Positions 14,609-64,000 of a DNA stretch of 64,000 bases are shown one piece after another. Position 1 is the first letter of the stretch; every line of letters begins with the position of its first letter. The stretch covers positions 290,979-354,978 of the forward strand of contig QPGO01000008.1 in the NCBI GenBank assembly GCA_008632985.1, given 5' to 3'. The translations under genes were made by a program, and so were the position numbers. The notes below the pieces were generated by a model. That model was given only the letters and a program-made list of their open reading frames with translations, made no database searches and was not told the DNA's origin. This DNA comes from Psammoneis japonica (Eukaryota).

Positions 14609-14696
14609 NNNNNNNNNNNNNNNNNNNNNNNNNNNNNNNNNNNNNNNNNNNNNNNNNNNNNNNNNNNNNNNNNNNNNNNNNNNNNNNNNNNNNNNN
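14609..14696. other. Assembly gap (88 N)
   Basis: Run of N. Confidence 1.
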
Positions 14697-35186: not shown

Positions 35187-38100
35187 ATGGATGAATCGGC
35201 GTTGCACTCGGTGACAACGTCCGAATCAGATTGGGTGGAGCATTTCAATCCAACAGAGGACTTGAATTTTTGCGACGAGGATCTCCACTTGATTGAGGAC
35301 AGCTTGATGGACAAGCATGACAGAACCGAGCAGTCAAAGGACCGTCCAAAATGGAAAGTGGACAATGATGGGAAAGATGTTAAGATCACCTTTGGCCAAG
35401 CTCCCGTGTGGGAGACGGCCAAAGCCGAGATTCAGGGATGTCGCGAGAGGGTGCAAAAACTTACAGGAAAAGAATTCAAATCGATTGATCCTGTTGAGGA
35501 CATTGCGTTGCTGTTTGTGGGTGGTGCACGTCCTCTCATGCAACTTCTGGAGTCAGAGTTGTCGCTCAAGTTTCAAGAAGCTTCTCAATTTCTTGCCACC
35601 CACTGCAAGCAAAAGGCATGTCGGTTGTCAGTTGAAGAGTTGTGTGATGATGACGACATAAATTGTGCTGGGCCAATGACTAAAGAGAAGTGCAAAATGG
35701 TGTGGAAGTTAATGGGCCGTTCAGGCGATGCGTCATCGTCAACGGCTCGTAAGAAAAAGCCATTCTGGGAAAAATTCCAAGATGGGTTCAACGAGACGTG
35801 TCAAGAAACAAATGTGAGCCAGTCAGCATCCTTGATTGTTTCATTGGACGACGATAAAAAGAAAGCTGCAGTCAACAATGGAGATGACATGCTGGGTCTG
35901 AAGCAGGTTGTGCATGCAGACAAGCGAAAGGGCATCGTCGGTCACACAGCCGTGTCCCCTGCAACTCTTTTGATGTGCGGTGTTTGCTGGGAACGAGTGG
36001 GCGACACAACTTGTGATTGTCATGTAAATCTTGTTGAGACAACATTTGGATGGAGGCCAACGCTCGACCGAGTCACGTTTTGCTCTGATCACGGTTGTTG
36101 GACGATGAAGCTTCTTACATGCTTGCTCGAGAACAGAGCCGACATTCATGGGATGGTGAGGCGTCAGCATTGGCACCACTTCAACCACGACCAGACATTG
36201 AAGATCGGCGACCCCAGGGTTTTGATTGACACGACAGGGCCGGCAACACTTTGCACGGGGGCTGCATCGGTTTCGGAATGGAAAGTGGATATAAATGCTT
36301 TTCGAAACGGCACGAATGGCGTGGTGTTGTCTATGTCAACTATGCATCATGGTGCCCATTGGGATCTTGTCCTCAAGGGGGGGAAAGAGCAAGTGTCAAA
36401 GCGTGTTCCACTTGTTTTAAGTCCCGAATGTCGTCGTGCTCACACGTTCCGACGGTTTCTTGAAGATCAGCCAATTGATGAAGAGACGATCAAGGAATTG
36501 TCGAGGTTGAATGTTGATCATGTTACAGAGCATCAAGGTTATTCAGAATGGTTCCAAGGACGCAAGTGTGCATTGACCTCCTCTGGTTCTGATGCTCAAG
36601 TTTCAGTTCACCTTAGATTGGACAAAGCGCGAGAGCAGAGGCAGTCGCATTGGGTGTGCCTTGAGAAGCATCTCGACACGGCATCTGGTGTCGAAGATTT
36701 GGTGTCTCAAAATGATGACGATGATGATGCGGCACCGGCTCAGAATGGCAACATGATGCCACTGCACAATCCAATCCAATGACTGTTGGTGAAGGGAATG
36801 CTGCTGGCTCAGAGGACACCGATGATGATGACATTGTAGATTGGGCTGAGTTGGAAAAACACTTAGATTCAGACATGGAAGAGGAGGAGCGGATTTCTGT
36901 TGTCGAGAGTCGCCGTTGGGAAGCAAAGGAGGCGATGAAGAAAGCAAAGGAAATTCTTAGTGATGCAGTTGACTCCACCGAACGAAATGAGGTGTTGCGA
37001 GCCAAACTAACATCGGAGTTGAAAGCTGGCGAGCACAAGGATCTCCTGAAGGCGTTCGTCAAACAAATGGGGTGGAAGGTTTGTAAGACGCACAAGGCAA
37101 ACCTGAAAAACGCAGTTACGTGGCTAGAGTGTACCCCCGCCTCTCGACCCTACATCGTGCTGAACAAGGAGCAACTGAAGGTAAGCATGTGTAATTGCTG
37201 CTACTGACATTGTTTTACTATAGATCTAACCGAGTCGCTCCGAACCATTATTTGCTGACAAAGGCAAAATACCGAGAATGTATTAACAGCACGATACCGT
37301 CGAGTGTGACAAAAAACGATGACTTCATAGCGATTCTGAGCGGTGAAGTCTCCGCACCAGTTGCAAGAGATGGCGACAGTGAGCCAAAATGCCACTGGAA
37401 GCAATGGTGAAAACCACTTTTCTTCCACCACTCAAAGGTGAGGCGGCGGAGCTCTGTAGATTGGGACATGAGATGGAAGAACAGTACGGAAAAGATTTTC
37501 TTGGTGTTGCAAGCGGCGAAGGAGTGCGACTCGAAAACGGATCCGTATTTGTTGCAAACAATCTCTTCAGAGCCGGCCTGATACAGAAGCAAAATCGCCC
37601 TTATCAAAAGGACAGTCCAGACTTCCTCTGCACTGGAACAATAGACGATAAGCGAATCGTAGCGGTTGTCGAGATGAAGGCGCGTTGCAAATCTACTACC
37701 GCCGCCAAGGAGCGTCAGCGCATCTCCGAAGTTGGTGAATTTTCGTTTGTATCATGTGATTCGCCTGAGTTACGCAAGTTCATACTTAAACGTTCAGAGG
37801 CAGTTCAGGTGAGCTGATGCACGGAATAACTATTTGATACTGTCGTTGTAACGGTAACTCACCTCAGTCTCCACGACTTCCTCGCTACAGTGCGCTCATC
37901 ATGCAAGCACCCTTGGAGTCAACCACGTCATTCTTGCCACTGGAGACAGAGTAGGCCTTACAGCAATGGTGGTTATTGAGTACTCCGACGAGTTCCTTGA
38001 AAACTACGAAAAGTGCATCAACGACATGTACGAGTCGGCATTGAAGTGGGCATACGAGGAGGGCGTCGACATTCCAACGGAAGAGCTCAAGGCTGCTGTG

Positions 38101-44094: not shown

Positions 44095-44949
44095 ACCGGT
44101 ACCAATAACCTTACCTTGGGGGGCGTCTTTGGATGGAAGTGAGATCGTCGAAGGCGGTCTGATCGCCAGTGCGTTTGGGGGTTTTCCCAGTACGTCCCCC
44201 AACCTACCGGTACCGGTATGAGATACGACCTACCGTGCTGATAGGCCTACGCAAGCTCCGCTGCCATGGATCATGGACAGACCGATGTTGCTTTCTAATG
44301 ATGTCTGCTGCTCTACTCTAGCTAGCTAGAGACCACTCTACTCTCTACAAGTGCCACAGTAGAAAGTCTCTAGAGTAGAGAGAGAGAGAGTAGAGAGACT
44401 AGCCCTGCCACAGGGTCTAACACTTTTGTGATTATTTTGCCGGCAGCTGCTCTCTGGAGAGAGCCCTCCACACTCTAGCTGGAGAGAAGTGGTGGCTGCT
44501 GACTTCCAGCAGCTGGCCACTTGTGGGCAGAGAGAGAGAGAGAGAGAGAAGCAGTGGCATTCACAGTGGCAGTGGCTGCTCTCTAGCTAGTGGGCTGGCT
44601 GCAGCAGCGCTCTCTAGAGCAGAGAGACATCGCGGCTGCGCAGCCGCTTCCGTCACCCGTCACCCAGTTTCATCGTCCGAGGCTCATCGTAAGCAGCATC
44701 AATGAAATGTCTTGTGCGGGCGCAACATAAGTAAAATCTAAGCGCGACAATGACAAGCATTCAAAGATGGCACGCACTGTGTTTCTGCAGCATGCACAGC
44801 ATCGCTGAGCTGCAGCAGACAAACAAACAGCAACACACTGAACATTTGCACCTTTTAACCTCTTCGCGTGACCACACTGTGCCTTCGTTTTCGATCCTTC
44901 TACACAAAGTCGTACAAATGACACAACATGTGCAATGACGCACCAGTGG

Positions 44950-45870
44950 AGCGAAACAGCAAAATCCGGCATGGAGCCTCAATCGCACGCTCCCCAACCA
45001 CCGCACTCCAGGGGCCAGTGCACATGGGGTCGTTGTCAATGAAAAGGGTCTCGGAGCCAGCGTCATTGACGCATGCATCCACAAAGTTGTTCATGACTTT
45101 GGTTTTCTTGACCGCAGTGTCCGCACTGCCGACAAGAACTCTGACACCAGTGCCAACATTTTCAATCTCGTTGCCATCCAGAAAAGTGGAAGGATGTTTG
45201 CATGAGCACAATGCCATCGCTGCAGGAGCCGACGTTTGAGATTTTGTTCTTTTTGATGAGGCAGTCAAAGCAACTGTCCATGTCAATGCCAGTGCCAGCA
45301 GAGATGATGCCGTCAATCAGATTGTCGTCGATGACAGTGCCTTCTCCATCTGGAGCTTCAATGCCAGTGTTCCCTGAGTCTTGGATGATGTTGTCCTTGA
45401 CAAAGCTGTCGATGCCATCACCGTGAACAATGCCAGCCACACCAGAGTCATCAATGGCATTCTCCTTGATCTTGTTTTCATCCCCTGGGACAATGATGCC
45501 ACCGAGACAGTCTGCAACAAGGTTTTTCTTGATTGTGTTGTCAGCCAAGTCAAATGAGCCTGGCACAGCACCAGAGCTGAAGGCGACCCCAACGTTGTTT
45601 CCTGAGGCACACATGATTGAGTTTTCCTTGACAGTGTTCTCGTCCACAAACACTTGCCCACCACAACCAGCATCATCAACAGCCTCAACAGAAGTCTTGT
45701 GCTGCAACACGACGCCGGCACTGGCAGCCGCTGCAAAACCAGGCGACACGTCCGTGAATGACATTCTTTTCAACGTTGACTTTGACAGAGTTGACAAGAT
45801 TGACTCCAATGTCAGATGAACTGATTTCATTCTCCCTGACATCCGTGTCCTCCCCTGGGCAGAACAAGGT
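44950..45870 (-). pseudogene. Right-handed parallel beta-helix (PbH1/NosD-like) protein pseudogene, 5' truncated
   Basis: Repeats of ~22-25 aa such as IKKNLVADCLGGIIV, IKENAIDDSGVAGIV, VKDNIIQDSGNTGIE and IDDNLIDG. Frameshifts; no Tyr. Confidence 0.75.
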
Positions 45871-45879
45871 GATCGCAGA

Positions 45880-48800
45880 TGAAGCAGCATCATTTCCAAA
45901 GCTTCACAAGTGCAATGACAAAGTGAGGCAGTTCAAAGAGAACAACAAGAAAGCTGCCACCTCAGCCAAGATTGCAAATGACCGCTGCACCAAGCAAATG
46001 AAGAAGCATGAAGTGCGGGGCACCCCCCCTTGCATGATGACTGGGGATGATCTGATCAAGCCACTGAAGATGATCCAGTCATTTGCTTTCAACTCAATGA
46101 GAGGTTGACACCCACTTCACACACTTGCCAGCAGGTCCATGCAGAATTTTGCTGGGTGTGAAACAACAAGAGAGCAGGTTGCTGAATGACTGTCTGCCAA
46201 GATTCAAGAGCCAACAAGATGCTGCAAGTGAAGGTCTTGGAAAGGAAATGCCAGATGGACTCATTTCAAAGACCAATGAGTGTGCAAGGATGGCACAGCA
46301 ATGGAGCAGCAAGAGACAAAGCAGGCAGCATTTGAGACATGGACAAAATGCCCATCTCTTTTGAAGAACAGCAACGATGACTTCAAAGAAGAGCTTTGCC
46401 AGAGACTGCAGCCTGGGAAAGGAAGGGCACACATCCAAAGACCATTGAGAAGGCCATTGTGCCACTGAATCACCAGAAAGACAATCTTCCTTGCGAGAGA
46501 CATGACAAGAGGAACAATGGCCATGCAACAAGCAGCATGAGTGTCAATGACATGATGACAAGAGCAAGAGGTCAGATCATGCAAAGGACCACAGTCATGC
46601 CCAGAAAGGCAAGCAGAATGATGCAACAGTGTGCCACTGATTTGTGGCAAACTGAAATCAAAAGTCCCCAAGCTGCAAGCATCAAAACAACACTGCACCC
46701 AACAATTGGTCCAAGAATGTTGGCAAGAAGCTGGGTGCAAGGGGGCAAAGTCATGTGCATGGACAAGATGAGGACACATCTTGTGTTGGTGGACAGCAAT
46801 GATCCCAGTGTTTGTGCCACCAGATGTGATTGGATCAACCAGCTCAAGTCAAAGCAGGAGCACTGCACATGGCACCAACTGCAGCTGGCAAACAAAAAAC
46901 CAGAGATTGGCTTGAACCAAGTCTCAGCAAAGATGTTGATGCAGCTGAGATCATCCTTGATGATGGTTCTGCCCTCCTCAGCATGGCAGCAAACCAGAGA
47001 CCAGTGCACAATGTGCAGCCGGCAAAAGCTGAGATTGACCTGTCCACAAATGCAGGAGTGGATGCCCTGGGTGAGGGCTGCACTTTGCTCAGATGGGAGA
47101 CACACTCCCCTTTGCAAGTGGAGAATGTGGTTTTGATGTCATGGTGATGCACTGTTCATGTCATGAATTTTTTGTGTGTCATTGTGTCACCAAATTTTGC
47201 ACTTGTGCACAAATGCCAATGGCAACAGGAAAAATCCTGAACCACATTTTCCCCCAAATCTTGAGTCGCCTGGAACCAACCACAGCTTGTTGTGACACTT
47301 TTTGACCTTTCTTGCAACCACAAAAAAGCACGTGTCACATCAGATCGACCATGATGATGCCTCACGACTCTTCCCCAACGCCTTCCCAGGACACCATTCC
47401 CACCAACACTGTTGATGACAACACTGATGCAACAGGCAATGTCATTGCTTCTGTTCTGAATTGCCTGACACATGCAAAATAAGATGCCACAAACTGACGC
47501 TGTCATTTTCACTCTCCACTGCCTCCCACAGAAGCTGTCACAAACACCAGTGCCATCCCTGCGTTTCTTTCGACTGGCATGCCCGATGCTGTTGCTCATG
47601 CCCTTGGCACAACAGGTGCTGTTGACACTGTCATTGTCTTGTGCCAATGACATGCACTGTTGATTGCCACAAACTGACACTTTCATTTGCATGCTGCACT
47701 GCCTCCAACAGACAAGAATGTCACAAATGCCAACACCGCACCTGCTTTTGGCTCCACCAGCATGCCTGACACTGTCGCTCCTGCCATTGCTGTTGCAGGC
47801 ACTGTCAACACTGTTGTTGTCTTGTGCTGACAACATCCACAATCAAATGGTGCCAACTGACACTGCTTTCCATTCTCGCTTCTTGCCCTGCAGCCTCCCA
47901 CATGTGCTGTCGCAAACACCACCATGCCGACCTTTTCCCCATCGTCCGCAACCCCTCCCAACGCTGCTGCAACCCGCACGAACGGTTGCACACTTGCTCC
48001 GGCATGCAGTCATCACCCAAATGTGCAGGGTGTGGGTCTGGCATTGGATTTGACCAACTTTTCAGCACTTCATCCCGGTGGCACCGAGTGCATGTCCCGA
48101 GTGGCTGGGCCTGCCATCAAACTGTTTGGGTTCTTGCATCACCGCAACAGTTTGACATGCCGACAAGCCTCCACAAATTCTGGAATCATTGGCATTGGGG
48201 TGACCAACTTCCAAGGGTCAAGAAGTGATTGAAGAGGAGCTGGATGCGTTGCAGGATTGTCTTGGAAGGCTTTGACTCAAAATTGACCAAACGGCTTTTG
48301 GCCACATGGAACATCGAGGCTGTCTCTGAACGATTTGCAAGCTCTTCCCCAAATGGATTGAATCAGTTCCATCAGCTTCCCCCAGAATGAGAGCCGTGGA
48401 CCTCAGAACTTTGTTGAAAGAATTGGTCGATGGCTCTGCCAAAAGTGACCCAGTCAATTCTTCTCAACAAAAAGTCAAGGGGGGGAAAGCACACACACTT
48501 TGGATGCTTGATGGGCGCATCGAATTCATGTTCATTGACGAATCAAAATGGAGTGTGGTTTTCCCAAACAAGGACAATTGCTTTTGCCAGAAAGAAGTGT
48601 TCCACAGTGCAATGATCCAAACTGGCAAAGCAATCAAGGGGGTGGGGGATGGCACACATTTTCATGCTGGGTTGGGTGTCGTGGTTCTAAGCCCATTGGC
48701 ACATTTTATCGAAACGGCACACTGCACTGTCAAGTGTGTGTTTTTTGGCACACGACAGCACTTGCACTGCACAGTGATCTCTCTTTCATTTCTTGAAAAT

Positions 48801-51800
48801 GTCCACAAACAATCCCATGTCCTTCTCATGGGCTTGTGATTTTTGTTGCGTCACTTGGAATTTCAAATTAGAGACAGCAGTCGTGCTCTGTTCCGCAGCC
48901 TCTTTGAGTTTGGGACAGTCTTTTGGAAATGGGGTGGTGCCCTGCTCCACTCCAACTTGGTTTTTGACACTGTCCAAGTCACCGAGCACCCAGAGTTTGA
49001 TGACTTTATTCTCTTTAAGTGCAGAGAAGGCAGTGTTGCACCAAGTGACTTCGTGGCTGGCACCCGGTTGCCCAAAAAACTCAGACTTGTGAACGCCACT
49101 GCACCAGACGCGGGCAGCTGCCTTGTTCTCTGTCATGACAATTTGTTGGATTTTCTTGTTGCATTTTCCCAGACAATTGTGAACAGGAGATCAGCACATG
49201 TCGCCAATGATGACACACACAGATGAAGGAATTGTGGATGGCATTGACCAGCGGTGCAGGTTTGGCATTGACAGAAGCTGTGGCAGGTGGTGGGCGAAAA
49301 TGGAAAACAGTGTCAGTTTGCAGCATTCAATTGTGGATGTTGTTGGCACAAGTTAACAACAGCATCAACAGCACCTGTTGTGCTGAGAGCATGAGCAACA
49401 GCATTGGGCATGCCAGTCAAAAGAAATGTGGGGACGATGTTGGCATTCGTGACAGCATCTGTGGGAGGCGGTTTGGCAGGGAAATGACAGTGTGAGTTGG
49501 TGGCATCTCGTTTTGCATGTGTCAGGCCATTCAAAACAGAAGTGATGATGTCACCTGTTGCACCAGTGTTGTTTGTAACAGCGTCAGCAGGAATGGTGTC
49601 CTGCAAAGGTGTTGGGGAACAGTCATGAGAGACATCATCATGGTTGAGTTGTCAAAACACGTGCTTTTTTCGTGGTGTGGAAATGGCCAAAAAAGTGTCC
49701 CACGCAAGCTGTGGTTGGTTCCAGGTGACTCAAGATTTTGGGGTGACATGGGATGGGAGTTTTCACTTGACGACATGTGCATGTTTGCAAGCACATGAAC
49801 ACATCTGACTCAATGCATGTGATGATGTCATCACACATCACCCACACCCACGTCCCACAGGACCACTTGTGAAGGGGTGGGAGACACAAAGCTTGGATTG
49901 CAGAACACAACAGCAAACATCCTCAGCACAAAGGATGTCAAGAGCAGGCACTTCGTTGCATGTGATGACCAAGTGGTGGACAAGAAGACTGGCAAGCAAG
50001 TTGCAGTGCTGTTCAAAGTTGACAACATTGAGCTGGTGTGTGCCTTTGCACCAAGCCAGAAGTTCTTTGACCATGTGAAAGATCTCCAAGAAAGCAAATT
50101 GCATGTGAGCATCCTGTCAAAAAAGAAAATAGATCAGAGAAGAAGAGCAACAAGCAAGAAGCACAAGAGTGCATCTGGAGCCACAGCTCTGACGGTGGAG
50201 CAGAGCTCCATGACAAGCTGCGCCAACAAGTGAGAGGGAGGTGGCAAATGCTGAGCAAGCACTCAGGCTGTGCCACAAAGCTGGAGCACCAAGTGTGAGA
50301 GATTTCAAGCTGTTTTTGTGATCAAGTTGGCTCTGCAAGCTGTGCCAAGAGGTGGTGAATGCCAAGCGAGCACTCAGGATGTGCCACAAACAGCTGGAAT
50401 TTCCAGTGTGAGAGATTTCAAGCATTTTTGTGATCAAATCAGGTTGAGAACTTGTTCATCGTGCAGGAAGACATGGAATGGTGGACATTTGGGGGCCACC
50501 TGTCACCCTGCCAGAACAAAAGGCCAAATGTTGACATTGATCCCATGAGAGGAACAACATCATTGCCATTCCACCTGAGACACATGAGAAACAAAAAGAA
50601 GGTGTGATCCCCCCTGTGTTGTTGTTGTGGAATTGTGTGGAGTGAAGATTCCACATGCAGCTGGCAAGATGATCAAGTGTCAATCAAGTGTGAGAATGTG
50701 AGTTCAAGAAATGTGCCAATGCATGCAGTGCATTGGACATGATGCTGTGCCAGCACAACATGGCTTCATCCAAGATTGACTTCATTGAGTGTGATCCTGA
50801 GTTCAAGGCTGTGTTGGAGGAAGTTGCTGACAGCATGAACCTGGAGCTGATGTCTGGCACACAAATGCCAGCAACCATGTTCCCAAAGTTGAGCAGAGCA
50901 TTGAGATCATCAAGGAGAAAACTCAAGCCACAGTGCACCACCTTCCACACAAGGCAATGCCCAAGCTGATGTGCAAGCACACTGCAATCAAGAACACTGT
51001 GATGGCAAACATGTGCCCAAAGGAATTTCTGACACACACAGTCCATGCACTGTTGTGCAATGAAGAAACCTTGACTGTGACAAGCACCTCAGTTCATTTG
51101 TCCTGTCCCATGTTGAAAACAACTGGACAAACACCATGGGTGCATGTGGCATTGACAGCATGTGCCTGCAACCACCTTTTGACATTCCCAAGGGTGGGCA
51201 CCACACTGTGAAGAATCTGCACACAGGAAAACTGCTGAACCCCTGCAAGTGCACTGCCACACCCCTGACCAACACATGCACACAAGTGGTCAAGAAGATG
51301 GCCTCATTGCAGGGCATCAAACACTTCAAATTTGCAGACAACCTGTGCAACGCTGATTGGACTGCAGGAGCAGATGACAAGAAAGCAACAACAAGAGCAA
51401 CAATGACAGTCAAGACAACAACAAGAACAAGCACAATGATGCCAACTGTTCAACCAAATCAGAGAACAAAAACTGCAAATGTGAGCCTGACTCAGATGAA
51501 GAACATGAAGAAGCAAACAAAATGCTGGCAGGCAAAAGATCCAGCCCCGATTGATGGCATGATGACTGCAAGACAAAGAACAAAAAAACCATGAACAAGA
51601 CAAAGAGTCAGAAAAAGACAATGAACCCACAAAGGGGAAAAGAGGAGAAGCAAAACTGACAGAAGATGCGCGCAAGATGCCAGTGAGAGTGATGAGGAGT
51701 GGCGCCAAGTTCAGCACACCCCACAACATGATGTCACGCAAACACAGAGAAAAAAGTTTGATTTGCAGGACTGGCAGATGCAGAAGTGGAGCAAGAGCAG

Positions 51801-53530
51801 AGAGCAGAACAAGCTTGAGTGCTGCCATCACTTGAGAAAAATGTCAGCCCCAATCTGGGGAACAACATTGTTGAGTGCAACACAGAAACAGGAACAGCAA
51901 TGTCACATTTTGTGTGTGAGATCAATGGCTGGCTCTAGTCAGAAAAGGGGGTTTTCTTTGCCTGATGGCACCTGCTGCATGAAGGCTCAAAAGCATTTGG
52001 TCAGAGGGGGCATGATGCCTCTGAGAAGGAGACAAAACAACTCCACAACAGAGTGCACTTTGCACCAACATCAATTGAAAATGCAACTCTGGCTGAGAGG
52101 GCCAAGGCTGTGATTGCTTTGATGTTCCTGATGGAGAAGAAAGATGATGGTTGCATGAAAGGGCAAATGGTTTGCAGCAGCAAACCAACCAGAGAATGGT
52201 TGGACAAGGATGAATCAGCCAGCCCAGGTGCATTGTTGTTGGAAGGGACATCAACAACTGCTGTTGTTGACACTGTGGAACAAGAGCACGGTGCAATGAG
52301 TGCAAATGTCTTGAGCATGTTTCCACAGACACAGAGGTGCTGGAGCCCAAGGAAGGCACAGACTGGATCATGATGAAGATCACAGGAGTGTTCATTGACA
52401 TGCCAGCAAGCATTGATCCCAACCTGTGCTGGCCACATGTGGCCATGGAGAAGGGGAAAGAGTTCTCAGTGTCCAAGTCACCAAAGCTGCCCATGGCATG
52501 TTGGTCATGACTCCATTGTGGGGCAAGCAATTTTGCAATGCCTTGGAAAAGATTTGATTTGAGTGAGTTCAACCCATGTGATCTGTTCATCACCAATTGC
52601 AGACAACCTGTTGCTGAGCCTCAAAGAACCCCAAAGCAAACAACATGTTTTTGAGCTGGCCAAACAAGATGCACGGAAACCACGGCAAAGTTGTCACAAC
52701 AAGAGGAAAGAAATGTGGCCACCTTGGCATGATTGTGGACTTTAGCCACAAGGGCAAGGTGAAGGTTGATGTGACCAACTGCACTCACAAGATGATTTGA
52801 TGCCAGCTGGTGAAGAAAAACCATTTGACGCTGGTGGCACCAGACTGCCAGCAGAGCAAGCAAAGATGTGCCCACATGTGTGGGCAGCCAAGGGGTCATT
52901 CCTCTCCAAGAGAGGTTGTGTGGATGTGCACCTGACCATCACAACATTGTGTGTGCAAGTCAGGGAACCAACCAACAAAGATTGGGGAAAGCTGGTCTTT
53001 TGCCTCAAGTGTTTGATCTGGGCACAAAACGAAGTTGCTGCATTGAGTGCAAAGAACCTCCAAATCATCAAGTGGCATGTGGATGCCTCCTTTGTGGTGC
53101 ACAAGGATTTCAACAGCCACACAGGAGGAGTTGTGACCATGGGTGATGGAGCAGTGCAAGCCACATCAAAGCAACAGAAGCTCAACAAATGAGGCAGTGC
53201 TGAAGCTGAGTCAACAGGAGTTGACAATGCAACAACCATGTGATGCTGTGGACAAAGTTGTTCATGGAACATCAAGGCCACCCAATCAACAAAAACATCC
53301 TGTGTCAGGACAACAAGAGCACCACACTGTTGGAAAACAATGGGTGCAAGAGTGCCAGAAACAGGCTCTTGCTGATCAGATCAAGAAGGGCAATCTTAGA
53401 GTGCAGCGTTGTCCAGCCGATGACATGCTTGGAGACTTCATGACTGAGCCATTGCAGGGCAAGAAATTTTGAAAATTCAAACAAGCCATTGTGGGCTGTC
53501 AGGGTCAAGCATGAAAGGAGTGCTTCCTGT
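45880..53530 (+). mobile_element. Decayed Ty1/Copia (CoDi-like) retrotransposon A: gag-protease ~45.9-47.1 kb and integrase-RT-RNaseH ~50.7-53.5 kb, split by nested DNA
   Basis: HPKTIEKAI, IILDDGS...STNAG, ECDPEF, HHLPHKAMPK, LMFLMEKKD, FNPCD, KWHVDASF..H.D..SHTGG, NILCQDNKS, CPADDMLGDFMTEPLQG. That both halves belong to one element is inferred from their collinearity. Confidence 0.85.
47140..49840. mobile_element. Nested element with long (~0.5-0.65 kb) diverged inverted termini containing ~180-bp internal repeats (foldback/Mutator-like)
   Basis: 47200-47700 is the reverse complement of ~49300-49800, e.g. AAATCTTGAGTCRCCTGGAACCAACCACAGCTTG. The unit AACTGACRCT recurs at ~47490, 47670 and 47855. 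Confidence 0.7.
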
Positions 53531-55889
53531 TTGTGATGTCAGACAAGAAATCTGATGCATGCAGGTGAAAGATCCTGCAAAATGGAAGATGTGAAACAAA
53601 CCCTGTGGCTCAGCCAATTGCAGCTTGTTTTCCAAGCAGCCATGATGTTGATGGCCGTGCATGCCGGCATCAGAGGAGATGAACCAGGGCATGTGAACAA
53701 ACACCTGGAACCACATGACTTTGCCGCGAGATGTCAGCTGCAACGTCATTGGAAGAAGCTCAACATGTTTTGACAATTGTCAAACAAAAACAAAAAGAGA
53801 AGAGAACTTCAAGACCCAAACTGCCAAAAGGCAGTGGCAGAGCATGACAAGTGGAGGAAGCAATGCCTGTGAATCCATTTGTCCATCAAGAAGTGGTTGA
53901 CATGGGTCTCTTGACACTTGAGTTCCAGAAACATGGGAAGGTCATCTGGGCTGTTCTCCACAGAATGCAAGAAAAGTGCAAGAAGGAATTTGAGGAAGAC
54001 CGGCACAAGTGGTGGACAGCAAGGCACATCACATTGTGGTGCACATGTTCTGCAGTGCAAGAGTGGGTCTGCAAAGTGCACCAGTGTGTTTCCACTGCTG
54101 CGCCAATGATCTCCCTGTTGGACAAGAGACAAGAACACATGATCACAGCATTTGAGACATGCAGAAGTGCAAGGGAAGCACACAAGACCAAGGAACATTG
54201 GGAGATTGTTGGAAGCCAAGAGCCAGGATTTAAGGATGTGAATGTTGCTGCAGAAAAAGATCCTGTGAAGACTGTCCCAACAAGCACAATGAAGAAAAAC
54301 AACCATGGGGTCAAGTGGCAATGATTTTTGTTTTGCCTCAGACAAGGAGGGCGTCGACCATCTGAGCAAACTGTTGTTGGTGAGCTGCCCCACCTGCGGG
54401 ACATGTGAACCTCTTGTGGAGAAGCACACTGCCAACTTGCCCCAAGAGACAAAAGAGTTTCAGCTTGGATTGGTGCAAGACAATGAGGGCATTGTCTGCG
54501 ACACTTTAAAGTTGGCACAATTTTTCCAACATGGAGTTGTTGAAGCAAAACCCAGACAGGAGCAGGCCTGCCACAATGTGGAATTTTGTGAGCTGTGCTC
54601 ATGGAGGATTGATGAGTGGGTCGTGGATCTGATCAAAAATGTGGGTCCTTGCAGCAAGAATGAAGAAACAGAAAGGACTTGCCACACTTGTGGGAAGCAT
54701 TTTGTGGATCAAACAGAAGGGATCACAAATGCCCTCTTTGATCTGGTTGACTTTGAACATGATGTGGAAGGATGTTTGCTTTGCTTGTGTGAACTGTTGG
54801 ATGGTGGCATCAAGGCAGTTGACATGACTGGCAAGTTTGTGGTGATTGCTCCATGAAGAGAAGTTGAGCCTGACTGCAGCTGGGGAAACAAACATCAAAT
54901 CATCAGCACAAGCAGCAGGAGCATGTTGGATGGTGCAATGAACCTGGATGCACTGAAGAGAAGACATTGTTGCTCCTGATGCAGAGGGTTCAGCAACTTT
55001 TTGCAATTGAAAGTCAATCATTGCCCATCTCTCTTAAATTTCTGCTTTTGTCTCACTCTTTAGAGGGAATCATTTGGCCCATCACAACCACACAACTCTG
55101 TTGCATTGGTGTCACCAGGTGCTTTTTGCACTGCAAGTTCAAAGTTTGAGGCCTGCGCCAACAACTTCTGGGCAACCCACAGCTGCTGCAAGAGCAGCAG
55201 CCAACAAGCAAATGCAACAAGCAGCACAGGAAGCCTCACAAGACTCTGTTTTGGTGATGCCAGCTTGCTGGTTCAACATGTTGATGCCATTTCATTGTTG
55301 AGCACAACCCAAAGGAGCACATGCATGCCATGCTGGCAAGGTTGCTGGCAAGGCAAGAGATTTTGCAAAGGAGAAGTTTGTGTGTTGACAACAATTGCTC
55401 AAAAATTGTGCCATGTTTTGAGCCTGATTTTGGAATTGCTCCCCATTGTCTGTGCCAAGCTGAAGTTTTGTTGTTCCAGTGTTTGTGCTGCAATCAACCC
55501 TTCCCACATCTCATTGAGAGATTCTTGAGAGAGCTGGCACAGTGCCAACAGCTGCTGTGAACAGCAAGATTGACTCATTTGAGGCCCTTCACAATTTTGA
55601 AATGGCTTGCAGCAGACTCAAAAGGGACAAAAGAAAAACAGAGCCAAAAAATGCAATGCTCTGAGAGATGAAAGCTGCAAGTGCTGAAAACAGAGATGTT
55701 GCTGGAAGCTGGCAAAATTGGAGCACACTTCCAGACACTCTTCCCTTCAAGCACAAGCAAAAAGGAGAGAGAGAGAGAGAGAGAGCTCACTGCACACTGG
55801 TTGCAAAACAATGTGCTCCAAAGATGACAAGGCAGAATTGGCTCAAAATTGTGAAATGTTTTTGGAGTGCAAGCATGTGAGGACATGGG

Positions 55890-57293
55890 ATGGGCTGGAA
55901 ACAGCAAGAAAAAACAGGAGATGAAGTGGAAGCAGCCAAGGTTGTTGACATCATTGACCAACTCAAACAAGGCAGGTGCTGCAAAAGGATGCAAAGAGGG
56001 GAAGACTCCAAAGAAGACTGCTGCTTTTTGTTTTGTCTCAAGGAACATCTTGAGACATCTCCAGCATGGGACAAAATCAAACTCGTGGGTGATGCTAAAA
56101 AGTCTTTGACTGAAGACTTTCCCCAACTGTCCCTTGTGGACTTCGAGTCCTTTGCTCTAGAGCGCTGGGCACTTGAAGAACCAGACAAAGTCCGTGAGCT
56201 CTGCAACAACCAGACATCCGAGCACTTTGCTCAACGCGCGTCAAAGCAACTGCTTGTTGCATCATTTGACAAAGAGCCACGTCAGGATGTTGCCCCGGAC
56301 ATGAACAAAGCATGCCACAGTGACGGCTCCACGCACTTCTTCTTGGCTTGCCAGAAGCTCTTTCCGTTGCCTCAGATGCACATCAACAACATCCAGTCTC
56401 AGATGTTGAAGATCTCTCTGGTCAATGACTGCGACAGCAACGTCGACAAACACATGAGCAAGTTCCGCCAGCACTTGCGCCTGCATGCTCAGCGTGACAG
56501 TGCGCTCGAGCATGCCCTCACAGAAAAGGCATTTGAAGAATTCAAGACTGCCCCTTGCAAACCCTTCGCGGACGAGATGGCCAAGCACAAGACAGAATGG
56601 ATGCGCAAGACACAGGTCACGTGGACAATCAAAACCCTGTTTGACGAGGCGATCAGCCTCAAAAATGCTTGTGTGGCCCAGCAGATCTGGGACAAGCCCT
56701 CGGACAACGACACTCAACCAATGGCCCCAATTGTGGGTCAGAAAGAGACAGTCGGATTCGCGCAGCAAATGGCCAAGGTCACGACCGCCTTGCAGAGCAC
56801 CCTGCACCAGCAGACACGATTCGAACGTCACGGCCGTCATGGCAGGCGCGGCAATCCAGGTCGCGGTGGTCGTGGTGGACATCATGGGCGCGATCGCCCT
56901 CGTGCACCTCATCGTGGATCCCCGCCGTTCTTGCATCTCGAACCCAAAAACAAGTCTCAGGAAAAACAATGGGGTGACAAGACCTGGCATTGGTGTGATG
57001 CTTGTAAGATGCATTCTACATGCCACAGCACTGACACTCATGATGAGCACATTGCTGCAAACAGCAACAAGAGCGGTGAGCGCACATCCAACCAGGGCGG
57101 CGGCGCACAGAAAAGGAGCGCCTGCGACCACAAGCGCCAAAAGGCTCAGTCTAAGATTCAGGCTGACATTGACAAGTTGCAGAAACTCACTGCCAACTTT
57201 TCTTTCTCCAAATCTGTTGCTGCTCTTGAGCAACAGAGGGGAGATGGCAATTGGACACTCCTGGTTCGCCACATGCTTGGGATCCGGTTTTAA
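55890..57293 (+). pseudogene. gag: Copia B gag
   Basis: 467-aa ORF with an RGG-rich segment and knuckle-like KTWHWCDACKMHSTCHSTDTH, directly upstream of the protease. Confidence 0.75.
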
Positions 57294-57332
57294 TCAAATG
57301 CTTTCCTGGAACGGTCAAAACAAAAGCAAAGC

Positions 57333-60300
57333 ATGAAACTGGCGCCATCTGTGCTAAAACTGCACCAGCAACGGCATGGTTTAGCAGGAGAGATTGTCGA
57401 CAATGCTTGTGCCTTTGAGACAGCTCTCGAGAACCGCGGACGATTCATCCGTGGTGGCCCCGTGCAAGCGAAACCCCGCTCCACGTCTGCATTTGTTGAC
57501 AAACGTGATGTGCCACAACTGGCCAAAGCACATGAAACTGTTGACTCTGGAACTCCTGAAGAAAACAAGGAGCTGCTGAGCACTTTAGCAGAACATGCTG
57601 CACACCTCACAGATGAGGCACCTGCCCTGACATCGGATGAAATTCACTTGGTGATTGATTCCGGTGCATCTGTCACCATTGCAAACAATGAGAATGATTT
57701 TACAGGGCACACAAGACCAGTTCAGAACTTGAACTTGAAGGGTGTCGCTTCAGGCCTCGCTGTGGAAGGCATTGGCACGGTGAGATGCTCCTTCATGGAC
57801 GACGCCGGTGTCAACTTCACCGTCAACATAGAAAACGTGTCACACGTCCCCACCTGCCCGGTCAGACTGCTTTGCCCACAGCAAGTGGCAGCCACAAGTC
57901 CCAATCAGGATGCTGATGGGTTCTTTACACGTGGCAGTTCTGTGACAATGATTTGTGGGCAGCATCGCAAGACAGTGCGATGTCATCATGAACCAAATCT
58001 TCCGATTCTTGCTGCTGCACCAGGCTTCGGCAACTGCCAAGCATTTTGCTCTGACACAAGAGCTGATGGCACTTTGCCATCATGCACCAATGTCAAAGCA
58101 CACTCGGCTTCGTGTCTGGCTTTTGCTGTCACAACACGAAAGCAAGAGGCGGCGGCCGACACAAAGGTCAGACCGACTCAAGCCAACAAGCAAAATGAAA
58201 CCACAAATGTGAACGGCAAAAAGGCCCGGCCTGCCCAGCCTCAACAAGCCTCACCAGTTCACGAGGGAGGCACAGAAGACAATCTGCTCCCCATTCAACG
58301 CGACATGTTAAAATTGCATCATCGCATGGGCCACGTTGGATTCGAACAAATCCGAGAATGGGCCAAAATCGGCATGGTGCCAAAACGCTTCAAAAAATGC
58401 AAAGCCCCGGTCTGCAAAGCTTGCGCATGTGCCAAAGCAAAGCGCAAAGCTGCGCAATGTGGTCATCGAATTGATGAATGCCACGACGATGCTCCAGGTG
58501 AGGTGCATCGGCGGACCAACTCGACGCGAGTCATCCAGGCCCACTTCCCACTGCTCGTGGCAAACCAACCACTCGCAGGTGCAAACACTGCACCCCATGG
58601 ATTGATCATTTTTCTAGATTTATCTGTCCATGTGTGCAAGAGTCTGCTGGAGGAAAAGAGACTTTGAATGGCAAAACCAAGCTCGAGAGATTCGCAGCCA
58701 AACACAACATCAAAATCAAGCATGTTCATGCCGATGACAGCATGTTCGCTGCTGCAGAGTTCACAGAACACTGCATTGAAAACAAACAACGGAACTCCTG
58801 TTGTGGAGTGGGAGCACACTGGCAAAACGGCATCTCCGAACGGCACACAGGCGTCATCACCTCGATGATGCACACGTGCCTGTTGCACGCTCAGTCCCTG
58901 TGGTCTGATGCAGCAACTACAGAGTTGTGGCCACACGCCATTCAACAAGCTGACAACTTTCACAATGTGTGCATCAGAAAGGGCAAACAGAAAAACCCCT
59001 GGGAACTGTTCACTGACGAGAAACCGCCATTCCAAATGGATGATTTTCGCGTGTGGGGGTGTCCTGTTTACATCGCGGACAAAAGTGTCCAAGACGGGAC
59101 TCACATCGGAAGATGGGCCAAACGGTCACGACAAGGAGTGCATGTGGGACATTCGCTGGACCATGCCAGCAATGTCTGCCTGGCATGGGACCCCACAACC
59201 AAACACGTCTAGCCACAATTTCACGTCACTTTTGACGAAAACTTTACAACAGTGGCGCCCCCCGGAAACACGTCCACCGACGCATTAGAGGCAGCTCTTG
59301 AAAAACCATTCAATGACCACAGCAATGCTTGGACTCACCACGATGAGTGCTTCAATCACAATTGACACCATTTTGAAAAGAATGTCTGGACTGAGGACGA
59401 CTTGCTCCGTGAACACGGCATCAACCCTCAAGCGTGCAAACAGATGCAGAAAAAGAATCACAAATCACGAGGGAGCAAACGCACTCGCAACGGCGAAGAA
59501 AAACCAGATGCTGACGACACATCAGCAGAGATTCTGCCAGCTGCTGGTGCCTCGGACACAACACCGACCCACGCAGCAGCTGCACCAGCAAATGCGACAA
59601 CACCAGCAGAATCAGCACAAGCCCCTGCCTCCGAGGCTGTGCTGCCTGTGGCGGCAGGTTCTACATCGGAGAATGCAGACGGGACCGGCTCATTGTCACA
59701 CCGCCCGCCAGCGGTCGACAATGCAACACCATCACTCATTGACAATGCAACAACCCCCGGCCCAACTGTGGCAGGATCAGAGGATGCTGCAACTTCTTTG
59801 ACAACACAAGAAGCCCTCAATGGCCTCAACATGGAAGCTGACCATGCTCGGCATCAATTTCAAGAATGCAAACGTCGAAAAGGATTAGACGACGAGGCAA
59901 CATGCACCATGGCACCAAACAATTTGAACCCGACAGACTCACCTGACGCAACCGCGTGTGCAACTGTGCCTCCACACCATCAGGAAGCAGCAGCAGAGCT
60001 GTGTGAAGAACCAGCCCATCTGATGGCACTCATGGGTTCCGCAGACAATGACACACTCCTTGACGAAGGAATTTGGAACGAATCCAGCCCACCAGCTTTT
60101 GAAGCAGCGGCGCTCGGAAATGCAGATGATCTGACCCAAGGTCAGATGAAGAAAGCGCCAGACCGTGCCGAATTCGAAAAAGCACAAGTGCCTGAAACAC
60201 AGGGTCTTGTAGACATGGACGCATGGGAACATTTGCCACGTTCCGAAGTTCCAAAAGACCACCGCCTGCTGAACGCGACATGGTCCTATAAAAGAAAAAG

Positions 60301-61800
60301 AAAACCAAATGGTGAACTGTCAAAACACAAAGCAAGAACATGCGTCGACGGATCAAAACAACAACACGGTGTTGACCATTGGGACACATTCACCCCCGTC
60401 ATCGCGTGGAGTGCAGTGAGACTCATTTTGTGTCTAGCGGCAATTGCCTGTCTGAAAAGCAGACAAGTGGACTGTGTGCAAGCATTTCCACAAGCAGAGC
60501 TGGAAGAACCAGTTTGTGTGAGACTCCCAGAAGGTTGGGAGGTCAAAGATGAAAATGGGAACACAATGCCAGACATGGCATGCAAACTCAAAAAGAACCT
60601 GTGCGGCACGAAAACTGCTGCACGAAACTGGTTTCAGAAACTGTCCAAAGGCCTGGAACGCCGAGGATTCAAGAAATCAAAACTGGACCCATGTCTGTTC
60701 ATCCGAAATGACAGCATCATCCGCTTGTGCACAGATGATTGTCTCGCATTCGCTCCAACAAATGACATTGTCACGACGCTCACACAAGAGCTCAAACAAG
60801 ACGAGTTCCAACTTGCCGACGAAGGCGATGCATCCGCTTTCTCAGGCGTTGACATCACTCAAACCGCAAACGGCGAGATGTCAATGACCCAGACTGGCCT
60901 TGTTGATTCCATGTTGACAGACCTTGGCCTGCAGTCAACCAACAATGAACCGTTGCAGAACAAGCCACGTGCAAAGGCTGCCCCAGAAGCACAAATGTTG
61001 CACCCTGATTCGAACGGTCAGGAGCGTCAAGAAACATGGAACTGCCAGTCAGTCATCGGAAAGATGAGTTTCTCAGCTCAAATGACTCGCCCTGACATTG
61101 CAATGGCGGTGCATGTGTGCGCTAGATTTTCGAATTGCCCAAAGGCATTGCACGAACGCACTGTCAAATGCATCGGACGCCACCTGTTGGCAACTTCAAC
61201 AGACGGAATTAAGTTCCGGCCAAAAGGGAAATTCTCCCTGGATGCACATGTTGACAGCGACTTCGCAGGAATGTGGCACAGAAATTTTGCCCACCTCCAC
61301 GATTCGCACCTTTCCCGATCAGGACATGTCATCACATTTGCTGGCTGTCCCATCTGTTGGAAGAGCAAATTACAAACCGAGACAGCTCTCTCCTCAACTG
61401 AGGCTGAACTTGTTGCGCTATCACAGTGCTTACGTGAGCCATTCCCTGTGAGAACTGCGCTGGAAGAATTGTCCAAAACCATGGATTTTGAACTGGCAGA
61501 TTCACACATTGAACCCGGTTCTCTGGAAACTCTTGTGTCACCACACAAGCTTCCCCCGTCCACCGCACATGAAGACAATGCCGGCTGCATTGTCCCAGCC
61601 ACATCTGACGAGCAACACAGAGTGCCGGAGCCAAGCACATTAGCATCAAATGGATGCATTTTCGTGACCACATCAAACGTGGTTCTGTGAAGGCAGTGAA
61701 AGTTGACACCAACCACAATTGGGCAGATTTGCTCACTGAACCTCTTGGAAGAACCAAGTTCGAAGGTTTGAGGCGCATGACAATGGGTTGGCAACCCTGT
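57333..61800 (+). pseudogene. pol: Copia B pol (protease, integrase, reverse transcriptase, RNase H), with frameshifts and one TAG
   Basis: VIDSGAS; LHHRMGH..CKAC; HVHADD, CGVGAHWQNGISER, WGCPVY; KHKAR, NLCG, LCTDD, TRPDI; HVDSDFAG, ALSSTEAE, HEDNAG, ADLLTEPL. Confidence 0.93.
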
Positions 61801-62012
61801 GAGCAGTTCAACACGGCTGCAGAATGTGACAAAAACAGCATTTTTGACTTGTGCAAATGGCGCCATTGTCTCGCTTCTCCTCGAAGCACGAGGGAGAGAC
61901 AAACCCTAGACACACCCTAGACACTTTCTAGGGATGCTCTAGAGGCTTAACAAAGACATTGCTTCATCGGCTTAGCTTCTCTTACATTGCTTGACAGAGC
62001 CCTCGTCGACAC

Positions 62013-62030
62013 GAGGGAGTGTCACGGTCA
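62013..62030 (+). promoter_or_regulatory. Polypurine tract (GAGGGAG) and start of the 3' LTR (TG at 62020)
   Basis: CACGAGGGAG|TGTCACGG about 220 bp downstream of the RNase H end. Confidence 0.6.
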
Positions 62031-62940
62031 GCGTACGACGTGCAGACGGACAGACTGTACCTCGTAGAGAACAGCTCGTGCTGACTCAGTGGGATGATGT
62101 CGAAGACACCTCTGAAGTGACTGACGTGGATAGATCATAGACCGCAGAAGCAGTGAGCCTCTAAAGCTCACAATGTCTTCACAAGACACAGCTCCATTTT
62201 CACAGACATGTGCCAGTCTTGCAATTTCTGCAAAATGTCTTTCAACAAACTGCAGCGCCAGTCACTTGACAATGTGCAAGAGGGTTGTGGTGCTGGTCTT
62301 CTCACTTGAGCTCCTCAGCTTCAGAAAAAAATGCTGCGCTGCATGATTTGAAGCAAAGTTGATTTGTGATGACACCAACCGTCTCATGGCAACAAGGCAG
62401 TTGAAACAGATTGACCCCTTGACATGCTCCAAAGATTCTTGGCTGCATGGCTTTCCCCTTCACTTGTGTGGCTGGGAGTGTGAAAATGGGCACAATGGCT
62501 GAGCTCTTGCAGCAGAACAAGGCATGACCTTCTGGGTCTTGGCATGTCAAAAAACAAGATCTGTTGTTGAGAAAGCCAAAAAACAATGCTCAAACATTTG
62601 AGTGCTGCTGAGCCAACAGCAGGTTGGGAAACTGAAGAAACAAGAAGAACTTCAGAAAGATTCTTGTCAAGAAAACTTCAGAAAGATTTTTGTCAAGAAG
62701 CAGACAAAGTGCAAGTGCTTGATGCAGAAGAAGCCAAGGAGCACTCTGTGGCAGATGACAACAAAACAGGAGAAGAAGAGCCTCTTGGTTTTTGAACTTG
62801 GACAGCAGCTGGTCAACATCAAAAGTGCTGTTTGTGGGAACAGGCCATGTGCAATTTTAAAAGCAGGGCAGCACCCAGAAGCAGTCAGCAAAGCATGCAA
62901 GTTGCCACAAGAAAATGTTCTACAATGTGCAGCTCAGTGC

Positions 62941-64000
62941 AGGATCCGAGTGTTGACTCAGCAAATGACCGCTTCGGACTGGATCTCAATTGCAGTGTGC
63001 ATGCAGACAAAAGGTTATTTTGTCACGCCCTTTGTGACATTTGAAGGCTGCAACACGTCGCCGTGATGCATCAACTCTTGTTAGCAGCTGTGTGTTGCAC
63101 AGTTGATCCCAGTCAAGAACCACTGAGAAGTGACAAAACCTTGTGACACTTGGGAGACTCACAGAGCAGAGCATTTGGTGCAAGCTCTGCTCCACACAAG
63201 GGGGGGGTGGGAGAAACCCAAACCCTCCGCAGGGTCCTGCACCAGTGCAGGGGCTCTTCCGGAAATTCAACGGAGCACTGGCACCTCGGGCGTTTTCGAG
63301 AGCCAACCCCCAGTGGCACACCCTTCGGCATTTCGCGACGTTGGGCAGCAACTGGGGAGTGAAGTGAGCACCTCGAATGAAGACACGCCAGACCAAGTTT
63401 TCCCGCACAAAAACCAAAGCCGTCAAAGGTGTTGTGCTGCGTTGCAATCCCAGACCTCGTCTTGTCGACTCCCGAGGCCGAATGAGACGGGTCGAGCTCT
63501 GGTCCCAGGGTGTGGTGGGTGGGTAAAAAGAAGAATGCATTTCCGAGCTTGAGTGATCCAGTCACGATGATCAGGGTTCCTGTTCCAACAAAGCTGGAAA
63601 AGTGAGAGAAAAGAAAACCGAAGTTTGACCGGTCACAGTCAGAAGACCAGACTGAGTCATCTTGAGTCGGAAGTGCCCCACTTCCGTCGCGGATCCAGCG
63701 AGAGGTCATGGTCATCGAGCGAGGTCGGTTTGAGTCAGTCCGTCTCCATCTAAACTTGGGTGCGAGGAGGATCCGAGCACTGACTCAGCAAACGACCGCT
63801 TCGGACTGGACCTCAATTGATCCTAGTCAAGAACCACTGAGAAGCAACAAAACCTTGTGACACTTAGGAGACTCACAGAGCAGAGCATTCGGCACAAGCT
63901 CTGCTCCACACAAGGGGGGGTGGGAGAAACCCAAACCCTCCGCAGGGTCCTGCACCAGTGCAGGGGCTCTTCCGGAAATTCAACGGAGCACTGGTGCCTC
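62941..64000 (+). repeat. Direct repeat (62941-63287 and 63768->64000), LTR-like or tandem unit; copy 1 has 113 extra bases (62993-63105)
   Basis: About 230 alignable bases, near identical apart from transitions. Confidence 0.92.

Follow-up and report, generated by a model that had tools for sequence, protein, structure and literature searches.

We analysed a stretch of 64,000 nucleotides of contig QPGO01000008.1 (assembly GCA_008632985.1, Psammoneis japonica, positions 290,979 to 354,978 of the forward strand), hereafter the window, in which the dinucleotide 5'-TA-3' (TpA) is nearly absent from islands containing transposons and a pseudogene and occurs at normal frequency in the genes between them. 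Observed-to-expected ratios (O/E, the observed dinucleotide count against the count predicted from base composition) were computed in 1-kb bins, and the window was divided by a two-state segmentation. The 1211 TpA of the window are spread very unevenly. Five depleted blocks sum to 37.7 kb (TA O/E 0.07, CG 0.46, CA 1.65, TG 1.74), and the normal-state DNA amounts to 26.3 kb (TA O/E 0.59, CG 0.98, CA 1.13, TG 1.22). The bins at ~1-4.4, 9-17.8, 32-37 and 45-64 kb have TA O/E of 0.00-0.21, and bins lying entirely within intervening genes 0.41-0.83. A first-pass annotation, made from the letters, had described blocks at ~1-4.2, 8.5-17.8, 31.7-37.1 and 44.8-64 kb as nearly free of TpA and the adjacent genes as normal; both bins and segmentation confirm this, with 5 TA in 4681-4740 and O/E of about 0.58-0.59 in the genes between blocks.

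The blocks, like the spared island and the repeats described below, are given without strand. Block 1 (1..4442; 17 TA, TA O/E 0.06, CG 0.13, TG+CA 1.81) is poor in both TpA and CpG, and its open reading frames (ORFs) gave zero Pfam matches and no recognisable protein domain. Block 2 (8539..17806; 47 TA, TA O/E 0.08, CG 0.52, TG+CA 1.66) includes an assembly gap of 88 N (14609-14696). Block 3 (31702..36836; 42 TA, TA O/E 0.14, TG+CA 1.49) has nearly normal CpG (O/E 0.81). Block 4 (44914..61906) is the core of the finding, with 48 TA per 16993 bp (TA O/E 0.04, CG 0.40, TG+CA 1.76), and block 5 (62163..64000; 8 TA, TA O/E 0.07) continues past the window end. The interval 44750-64000 as a whole contains 72 TpA against 1206.8 expected (O/E 0.06; CG 0.41, TG 1.87, CA 1.63). 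Runs without any TA extend up to 2567 bp (44913-47480), followed by runs of 1806 bp and 1208 bp.

The block edges are step-like and resolved within 100 bp, the steps of block 2 lying at 8538 and 17806. At 44913, counts of 2-11 TA per 100 bp give way to none over more than 1 kb, and at 17806 the count climbs from 0-1 to 3-10. A TpA-normal island of 256 bp with two sharp edges (61907..62162; 12 TA, O/E 0.80) separates blocks 4 and 5. It is CTAG-rich, begins right after the end of a Copia pol region, and had no similarity to the rest of the window. The island may be host DNA remaining between two insertions, in which case the spread of the mutator would fall short of 100 bp. At the border of block 4, the stretch 44300-44620 is a CTAG- and (GA)n-rich low-complexity sequence that retains TpA and has about 20x single-copy word depth in the sequencing run discussed below (run X1); a similarity search with the 44.3-44.9 kb border found nothing. 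Block 5 contains a very high-copy repeat at 62677-63343 (summed word depth 24541 in run X1, about 370x single copy).

In block 4, the body of a Copia-type retrotransposon (55881..61791, + strand) was detected by the Pol_BBD, gag_pre-integrs, RVT_2 (E 7e-36) and SH3_retrovirus domains and by tblastn with residues 149-1204 of protein P0003. It consists of a gag-like ORF (55881-57290), a protease/pre-integrase part (57294-58664) and an integrase-reverse transcriptase-RNase H part (58502-61791), all on the + strand, and the domain order matches Copia (gag, protease, integrase, reverse transcriptase, RNase H). A search for a pair of long terminal repeats around it detected none. Tblastn across the window found one Copia only, and a "Copia A" of the first-pass annotation was not located. 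The adjacent older repeat (50059..55880), with a summed word depth of 2-5x the single-copy level in run X1, has TpA and CpG nearly erased (TA O/E 0.01-0.03, CG 0.02-0.15, TG+CA 1.8-2.0). A younger insertion with inverted arms of ~430 bp (47251-47681 and 49309-49743, 79% identical) is nested at 47017..50058. Contigs of run X1 bridge 47016 to 50058 and 47066 to 49879, and these junctions indicate other copies of the flanking repeat that lack the nested insertion. The nested insertion contains a SnoaL-like fragment (48789..49190, - strand; SnoaL E 1.2e-8), and a right-handed beta-helix/NosD-like repeat ORF lies in TA-free DNA at 45165..45932 (- strand; Beta_helix E 5.3e-12, NosD E 2e-8, also para_beta_helix).

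Two further targets were found in blocks 2 and 3. A hypermutated ORF of 542 amino acids (aa) in block 3 (35154..36779, + strand) belongs to a repeat family with 15 homologs and, judging from similarity scores, probably encodes a piggyBac-like DDE transposase: its Atlas score to DDE_Tnp_1_7 clusters is 0.90, one of 10 homologs of the family reached 22.2 bits, below the DDE_Tnp_1_7 Pfam cutoff of 22.4, and a PDB profile search gave no matches. Block 2 contains a hypermutated, nearly full-length pseudogene of a glycerol kinase (GlpK-type; 11447..12982, + strand) in four frame pieces (11447-11788, 11779-11988, 12121-12381 and 12374-12982), which correspond to positions 6-97, 133-172, 244-300 and 315-493 of the 496-position profile. 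Compared with solved glycerol kinases, of which bacterial 2d4w is the closest, the conserved APYW reads APHW and AAY reads AAC. The pseudogene may be a duplicated host gene or foreign DNA; it represents a cellular-type gene and not a transposable element. The targets range from a retroelement and an inverted-repeat element to a transposase-like gene and a pseudogene of cellular type. The proposal of a mutator aimed at repeats would have to be widened, since the glycerol kinase pseudogene is affected too.

The intervening genes consist of long ORFs with few introns and encode a GNAT acetyltransferase, a PPR protein, an R3H-domain methyltransferase and a mitochondrial processing peptidase. All named relatives of the latter are from diatoms, with identity of at most 60%, and no identical protein is on record; this places the window in a diatom-like genome and not in Bigelowiella. 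Rfam and tRNA scans over the window found nothing. ORFs of at least 120 aa are concentrated in the depleted blocks (96 of the window's 133), for instance at 56265-57293 and 61081-61905, both on the - strand. Long ORFs are frequent there on both strands because TGA is the sole stop codon left without TpA, and most have no domain match and are probably false genes.

The dinucleotide balance points to the products of the lost steps. According to the segmentation counts, ~2440 TA and CG are missing and ~2435 TG and CA are in excess, so that the lost steps were turned into TG or CA. ApA is not depleted (AA O/E 1.19 in the depleted blocks and 1.15 outside), and the AT O/E is likewise unchanged. GC-biased gene conversion was considered and rejected, since base composition and AA/AT frequencies are unchanged.

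The direction and context of the changes were determined from the codons of the Copia element. We used the integrase-reverse transcriptase-RNase H frame, with six stops read through as X and the Tyr-poor homolog P0004 excluded from the consensus. Of the 17 columns with conserved Tyr in the polyprotein, 7 now hold His, 6 Cys, 2 Tyr, 1 Trp and 1 Phe. At the second codon base, A was replaced by G in 6 of 17 columns at TpA and in none of 78 at ApA, CpA or GpA (p 1.4e-5). At the first codon base, T was replaced by C in 7 of 17 columns at TpA and in 2 of 44 at TpT, TpC or TpG (p 0.001). His and Cys outcomes are about equal (7:6), indicating that both strands were mutated. The altered Copia motifs and codons reported in the first-pass annotation are all present (KHKAR with CAC, DHW with CAT, DCVQA with TGT, LCG with TGC, CTDD with TGC, FSG with TCA, HVDSD, ETALS with ACA, AHEDN with GCA CAT; nine in total), as is the 762-aa ORF at 59402-61690 with its single Tyr. 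Its central claim, TpA-specific A:T>G:C change at the DNA level on both strands, confined to repeat or foreign DNA and with an excess of A>G at TpA over the other NpA contexts, is supported.

Other conserved residues were retained more often than Tyr. The Copia reverse transcriptase ORF has 0.1% Tyr against 1.3-4.3% in 9 homologs, and its 13 conserved Tyr columns include 1 unchanged, 5 His and 5 Cys. Most other classes of conserved residues in this ORF are retained at 68-100%, Thr, Val and Met at 50-52%, and Ile is lowest at 31%; the Ile codon ATA includes TpA. The transposase-like ORF at 35154-36779 lost the conserved Tyr in 8 of 8 columns (6 Cys, 2 His); there A became G in 6 of 8 columns at TpA and in 1 of 68 at other NpA.

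The same counts bear on the possibility that the loss is a by-product of heterochromatin, that is, of error-prone repair or replication synthesis in silent chromatin, for example of the Pol eta type with A>G at WA, which the first-pass annotation had listed among candidate mechanisms. The affected DNA consists of silent-looking repeat islands with CpG decay, consistent with methylated heterochromatin. A WA-directed process would also act at ApA, and the Copia codons show A>G at ApA (N>S plus K>R) in 0 of 21 columns, against 6 of 17 at TpA, in line with the undiminished AA of the blocks. The edges sharp to less than 100 bp, the spared 256-bp island and the loss of TpA in block 3, where the CpG O/E is still 0.81, also argue against such a by-product, and the Pol eta-type mechanism is disfavoured; we regard this explanation as improbable.

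Repeat pairs within the window place the changes after copying. Where two copies each resolved one ancestral TA (or CG) on different strands, TG in one copy is expected opposite CA in the other. The inverted arms of the nested insertion (429 aligned bases, 83 mismatches) have 14 such TG|CA double differences, 11 differences of CG against TG or CA and only 2 of TA against TG or CA, suggesting that the changes postdate the copying. The pair 63814-64000 and 63100-63287 in block 5 has 10 mismatches, all transitions, 3 being TG|CA doubles. A control pair in TA-bearing normal DNA, the direct repeat 29274-30090 and 30336-30990 (85% and 73% identical over two parts, transitions equal to transversions), has 0 TG|CA doubles among 43 mismatches.

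Editing before integration, either A-to-I editing of retroelement RNA by an ADAR-like enzyme or editing of the cDNA, fixed at insertion, appears very unlikely. ADAR is known from animals only. The best-studied element here is a retrotransposon; the inverted-repeat element, the transposase-like ORF and the glycerol kinase pseudogene are not retroelements and are affected too. The strands are equally affected, as the 7 His and 6 Cys indicate, and the favoured 3' neighbour is a pyrimidine, not G. The 5' U preference of ADAR, noted in the Discussion of a preprint on the chlorarachniophyte Bigelowiella natans, agrees with the TpA context; in B. natans itself, according to the same preprint, a single-copy insert acquires its mutations in situ (Mettrop et al., bioRxiv 10.64898/2026.01.13.699255).

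We compared the window with 79 related Copia loci from metagenomes. Their TA O/E is 0.34-0.91 per locus; none of the 474 one-kb windows drawn from them lies below 0.28, and TA-free runs are at most 302 bp long. The depletion in the window is therefore far beyond the range of related elements. Both search patterns included Tyr and were biased against hypermutated copies, and the loci were used as a baseline only; with such patterns disfavouring them, no hypermutated copies were found among the 79. The idea that these elements always avoided TpA, by native composition or selection, accords with the mild under-representation of TpA everywhere (O/E 0.59 in genes). The relatives have both TpA and Tyr (1.3-4.3%) and do not natively carry the Cys and His residues, an alternative raised in the first-pass annotation; moreover, Tyr of the catalytic core is replaced in the window, reading frames are broken, and a proteome without Tyr would not be viable. 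We consider this explanation refuted, with a negligible probability of being correct.

Comparable proteins already exist in public sets. Among the best 150 relatives, obtained by a search without word index, 5 have less than 1% Tyr (median 3.06%). At 15 conserved Tyr columns, P0284 and P0211 each have 0 Tyr, 3 His and 8 Cys, and P0243 has 0 Tyr, 3 His and 4 Cys; P0284 contains 1 Tyr in its whole 2061 aa. Conserved Phe, Trp and Asp are 64-91% retained in these three proteins. The Tyr to His/Cys pattern is partial in P0004 and P0130. The outcomes at given columns differ among the Tyr-poor proteins, suggesting independent events. All five, Copia and transposase-like predictions, are found in the ENA, Logan and NCBI sets.

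The depleted sequence was also examined in public reads. One public sample contains the stretch, and the evidence comes from the unitigs (31-mer) of its run X1; runs X2 and X3 contributed 6 and 0 contigs and were uninformative. Over 588-1719 nt, unitigs of run X1 with depth 60-71 (~65x) agree with the TA-free sequence except for 0-3 differences. The first-pass annotation had considered a base-calling artefact with TA in the raw reads, and the unitigs give the TA-free sequence instead. An artefact of base calling, polishing or library chemistry on modified DNA could be imagined, since some long-read platforms miscall modified bases systematically and the sole run containing the stretch may be the assembly's own sample. 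Strand-dependent misreading of a modified base would break unitigs at every site, and the unitigs of 0.6-1.7 kb are unbroken. The same Tyr to His/Cys pattern in other public predicted proteins (ENA, Logan, NCBI) and, according to the preprint, the calling of the B. natans mutations from Illumina data (bioRxiv 10.64898/2026.01.13.699255) likewise speak against an artefact, which we consider extremely improbable.

The contigs matched to the window show 466 differences from it, including 404 transitions and 48 transversions. Among the 40 differences listed, 27 are swaps within TA, CG, TG and CA; 10 have TA in the reads (alleles or paralogs) and TG or CA in the window, 7 have CG in the reads and TG or CA in the window, and 3 pairs are TG|CA doubles. 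Long, full-depth, otherwise identical unitigs differ from the assembly solely by such swaps at 45238, 48052, 45389, 54160, 57245 and 55425-55426; at 45238 and 48052, for instance, the assembly has TG and the reads TA. Both mutation types thus seem to be polymorphic, between alleles or within the culture.

The survival of TpA depends on its flanks. Relative to normal DNA, survival by 3' neighbour is 0.043 for TAT, 0.074 for TAC, 0.125 for TAG and 0.223 for TAA, and TAA is the biggest surviving class in 5 of 5 blocks. Measured against the 79 related loci, TAT and TAC remain the contexts with the lowest survival, and TAG (0.194) is slightly over TAA (0.170). The heterogeneity over ten tetramer classes is strong (chi-square 105, p 1e-18). 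Tetramer survival spans 0.41 for TTAA to 0.009 for ATAC/GTAT and fits a product of two per-strand factors, RTA (R, purine) being the most depleted TpA context.

CpG was lost in a different pattern. It is nearly erased (O/E 0.02-0.15) in the sub-blocks at 1-4, 15-17, 46-47 and 50-56 kb. Flank counts from 1-4442, 14700-17806, 46001-47016 and 50059-55880 gave CpG survival of 0.08 for TCG, 0.13 for CCG, 0.16 for ACG and 0.21 for GCG, with TCGA lowest at 0.05. The CpG loss is probably a second, separate process, because it is extreme in some sub-blocks only, is near-absent in the TpA-poor block 3 and has the opposite flank bias. A single enzyme for TpA and CpG was considered and judged unlikely on the same grounds of opposite flank biases and of TpA lost where CpG is intact (block 3). 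In the younger nested insertion (47017..50058) the CpG O/E is 0.33-0.38, compared to 0.05-0.07 in its flanks, and TpA is already at 0.02-0.06; CpG loss lags behind TpA loss there, suggesting that the TpA process is the faster one. Given the CG methylation of transposable elements in the diatom Phaeodactylum (see below), the CpG loss is most simply read as deamination of 5-methylcytosine (5mC). Its TCG bias resembles the TCG-targeted hypermutation of some basidiomycetes.

We consider it likely that the blocks are transposon and dead-gene islands of a diatom-like nuclear genome which were hypermutated at TpA, at the DNA level, after insertion. The A of 5'-TA-3' on either strand would be changed to G, converting the steps to TG or CA with hardly any TA remaining. 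The process would halt within 100 bp of the island edge, leaving the neighbouring genes untouched, and would outpace CpG decay, with flanks susceptible in the order TAT, then TAC, TAG and TAA. The depletion, its direction, the TpA specificity, the use of both strands, the sharp borders and the range of targets are observed directly. TA relates to TG plus CA as 162:7933 in the depleted state, which would imply a rate ratio of at least ~50-fold, assuming that the blocks have reached equilibrium.

The probable source of this hypermutation is an enzymatic activity that is targeted and serves silencing or defence. Targeting could be by sequence identity or by a chromatin mark. For the chemistry, we tentatively suggest that a DNA-acting deaminase of the TadA/ADAT2 type converts adenine to hypoxanthine; this is the most likely candidate, with somewhat less than an even chance of being right. 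In an alternative chemistry, the T of TpA would be modified, for instance oxidised or hypermodified by a TET/JBP-like dioxygenase, and mispair with G, giving T>C, which appears as A>G on the opposite strand. TpA is palindromic and all counts fit this chemistry equally; in dinoflagellates, TpA and TpC are enriched for 5-hydroxymethyluracil. The modified thymines known so far pair with A and are only weakly mutagenic, and the unitigs form a single clean sequence without a strand-dependent TG/CA mixture, which makes the thymine-directed process unlikely in our view, although it is the strongest of the rivals.

Several points weigh against the interpretation as adenine-directed defence. The word defence is a reading of the targets and denotes a putative function. 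TpA is self-complementary, so that the data do not separate A-directed from T-directed chemistry. The substrates of eukaryotic ADAT2/3 are not known to have a 3' U, and the TAT preference is not obviously ADAT-like. The flank hierarchy is derived from just 162 surviving TA, with genic DNA or related loci standing in for the ancestral composition, and the predicted TG outcome with a 3' pyrimidine is only a weak trend (TG share of the gain 0.56-0.59 before T and 0.43-0.49 before A). Run X1 may be the assembly's own sample; its unitigs exclude assembly or polishing error and would then not represent an independent strain.

We read the signature as a new, near-saturated case of the process whose first description dates from 2026. 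Its presence in a diatom-like genome suggests that the process is spread over distant marine algal lineages. To our knowledge, before 2026 no cellular process was known to erase TpA specifically from foreign DNA. The window adds flanks, borders, targets and independence from CpG decay to what is described for B. natans. The higher susceptibility of TAY (Y, pyrimidine) than TAR, the borders of less than 100 bp with the spared island, the CpG-decay independence and the range of class I, class II-like and pseudogene targets provide handles on the mechanism. If enzymatic, the activity would represent a naturally occurring mutator that acts on adenine in double-stranded DNA, of interest to genome defence, algal genome evolution and base editing. 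For annotation, TA-free DNA is a warning: on either strand it yields spurious long ORFs, and with them "proteins" without Tyr of the kind already deposited in public protein sets.

A bolder, speculative and rather doubtful hypothesis is that diatoms and chlorarachniophytes share an ancient dedicated defence, in which a double-stranded DNA adenine deaminase acts strand by strand at R-T-A-Y, guided by small RNA or sequence identity with a precision of less than 100 bp rather than by spreading heterochromatin, beside cytosine methylation and independent of it. Such a deaminase, if it exists, would be an A-directed counterpart of fungal repeat-induced point mutation (RIP) and of APOBEC and a natural double-strand adenine editor.

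Among known systems, RIP of ascomycetes is similar in that sharp-edged blocks of repeated or foreign DNA are ruined by transitions at specific dinucleotides. RIP changes C>T mainly at CpA and creates TpA, whereas here TpA is destroyed and CpA/TpG created; as the first-pass annotation pointed out, the direction is opposite, and the blocks (TpA O/E 0.07, CpA/TpG 1.65/1.74) show the reverse of the RIP index. The CpG O/E of 0.02-0.15 with TG/CA gain in several sub-blocks is like 5mC CpG decay, and transposable elements of Phaeodactylum are CG-methylated through DNMT5a (PMC9998398). Unlike this decay, TpA loss also occurs without CpG loss (block 3), and the most depleted contexts are TCG for CpG and RTA for TpA. 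ADAR (A-to-I) and APOBEC (C-to-U) of animals are also deaminase-type hypermutators of selfish elements, and ADAR shares the 5' U preference; their substrates are RNA or single-stranded cDNA, with strand bias and retroelements only, while in the window both strands and non-retroelement DNA are affected, with a 3' pyrimidine and not G. The tRNA adenosine deaminases TadA/ADAT2 have A34 as their natural target, which always follows U33 and so lies in a T-A context; evolved forms of TadA, the DNA adenine base editors, deaminate A in DNA. An enzyme of this type is a putative candidate here.

The closest system is that of B. natans, and the statement in the first-pass annotation that no system of this kind had been described no longer holds, because the signature was measured there. 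According to the preprint, 231 of 302 nuclear mutations in mutation-accumulation lines fell within two integrated viral regions, and 230 of these 231 were A>G or T>C, all at TpA, at a rate ~1000-fold over background and in some lines only (Mettrop et al., bioRxiv 10.64898/2026.01.13.699255). TpA-poor coding sequences of B. natans are enriched in reverse transcriptase and DDE domains, and the authors of the preprint proposed an ADAT2-like adenine deaminase; natural DNA activity, as cited there, is claimed for amphioxus ADAT2 only (bioRxiv 10.64898/2026.01.13.699255). The main text of the preprint makes no mention of CpG, flanking bases or diatoms, and a literature search, mostly outside subscription journals, found the TpA-erasing signature reported nowhere else, including diatoms. 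Both systems share the almost exclusive A>G/T>C change, only at TpA and on both strands, the confinement to transposable elements or foreign DNA, and TpA loss with CpA and TpG gain. For B. natans there is a direct measurement of the rate, and TpA is only partly depleted (rho TpA 0.45 in the insert derived from a nucleocytoplasmic large DNA virus), while here depletion is near saturation (O/E 0.00-0.14) and is seen from sequence alone. Unlike the chlorarachniophyte B. natans, the host here is a diatom-like stramenopile, in which CpG loss co-occurs and a 3'-neighbour hierarchy is seen.

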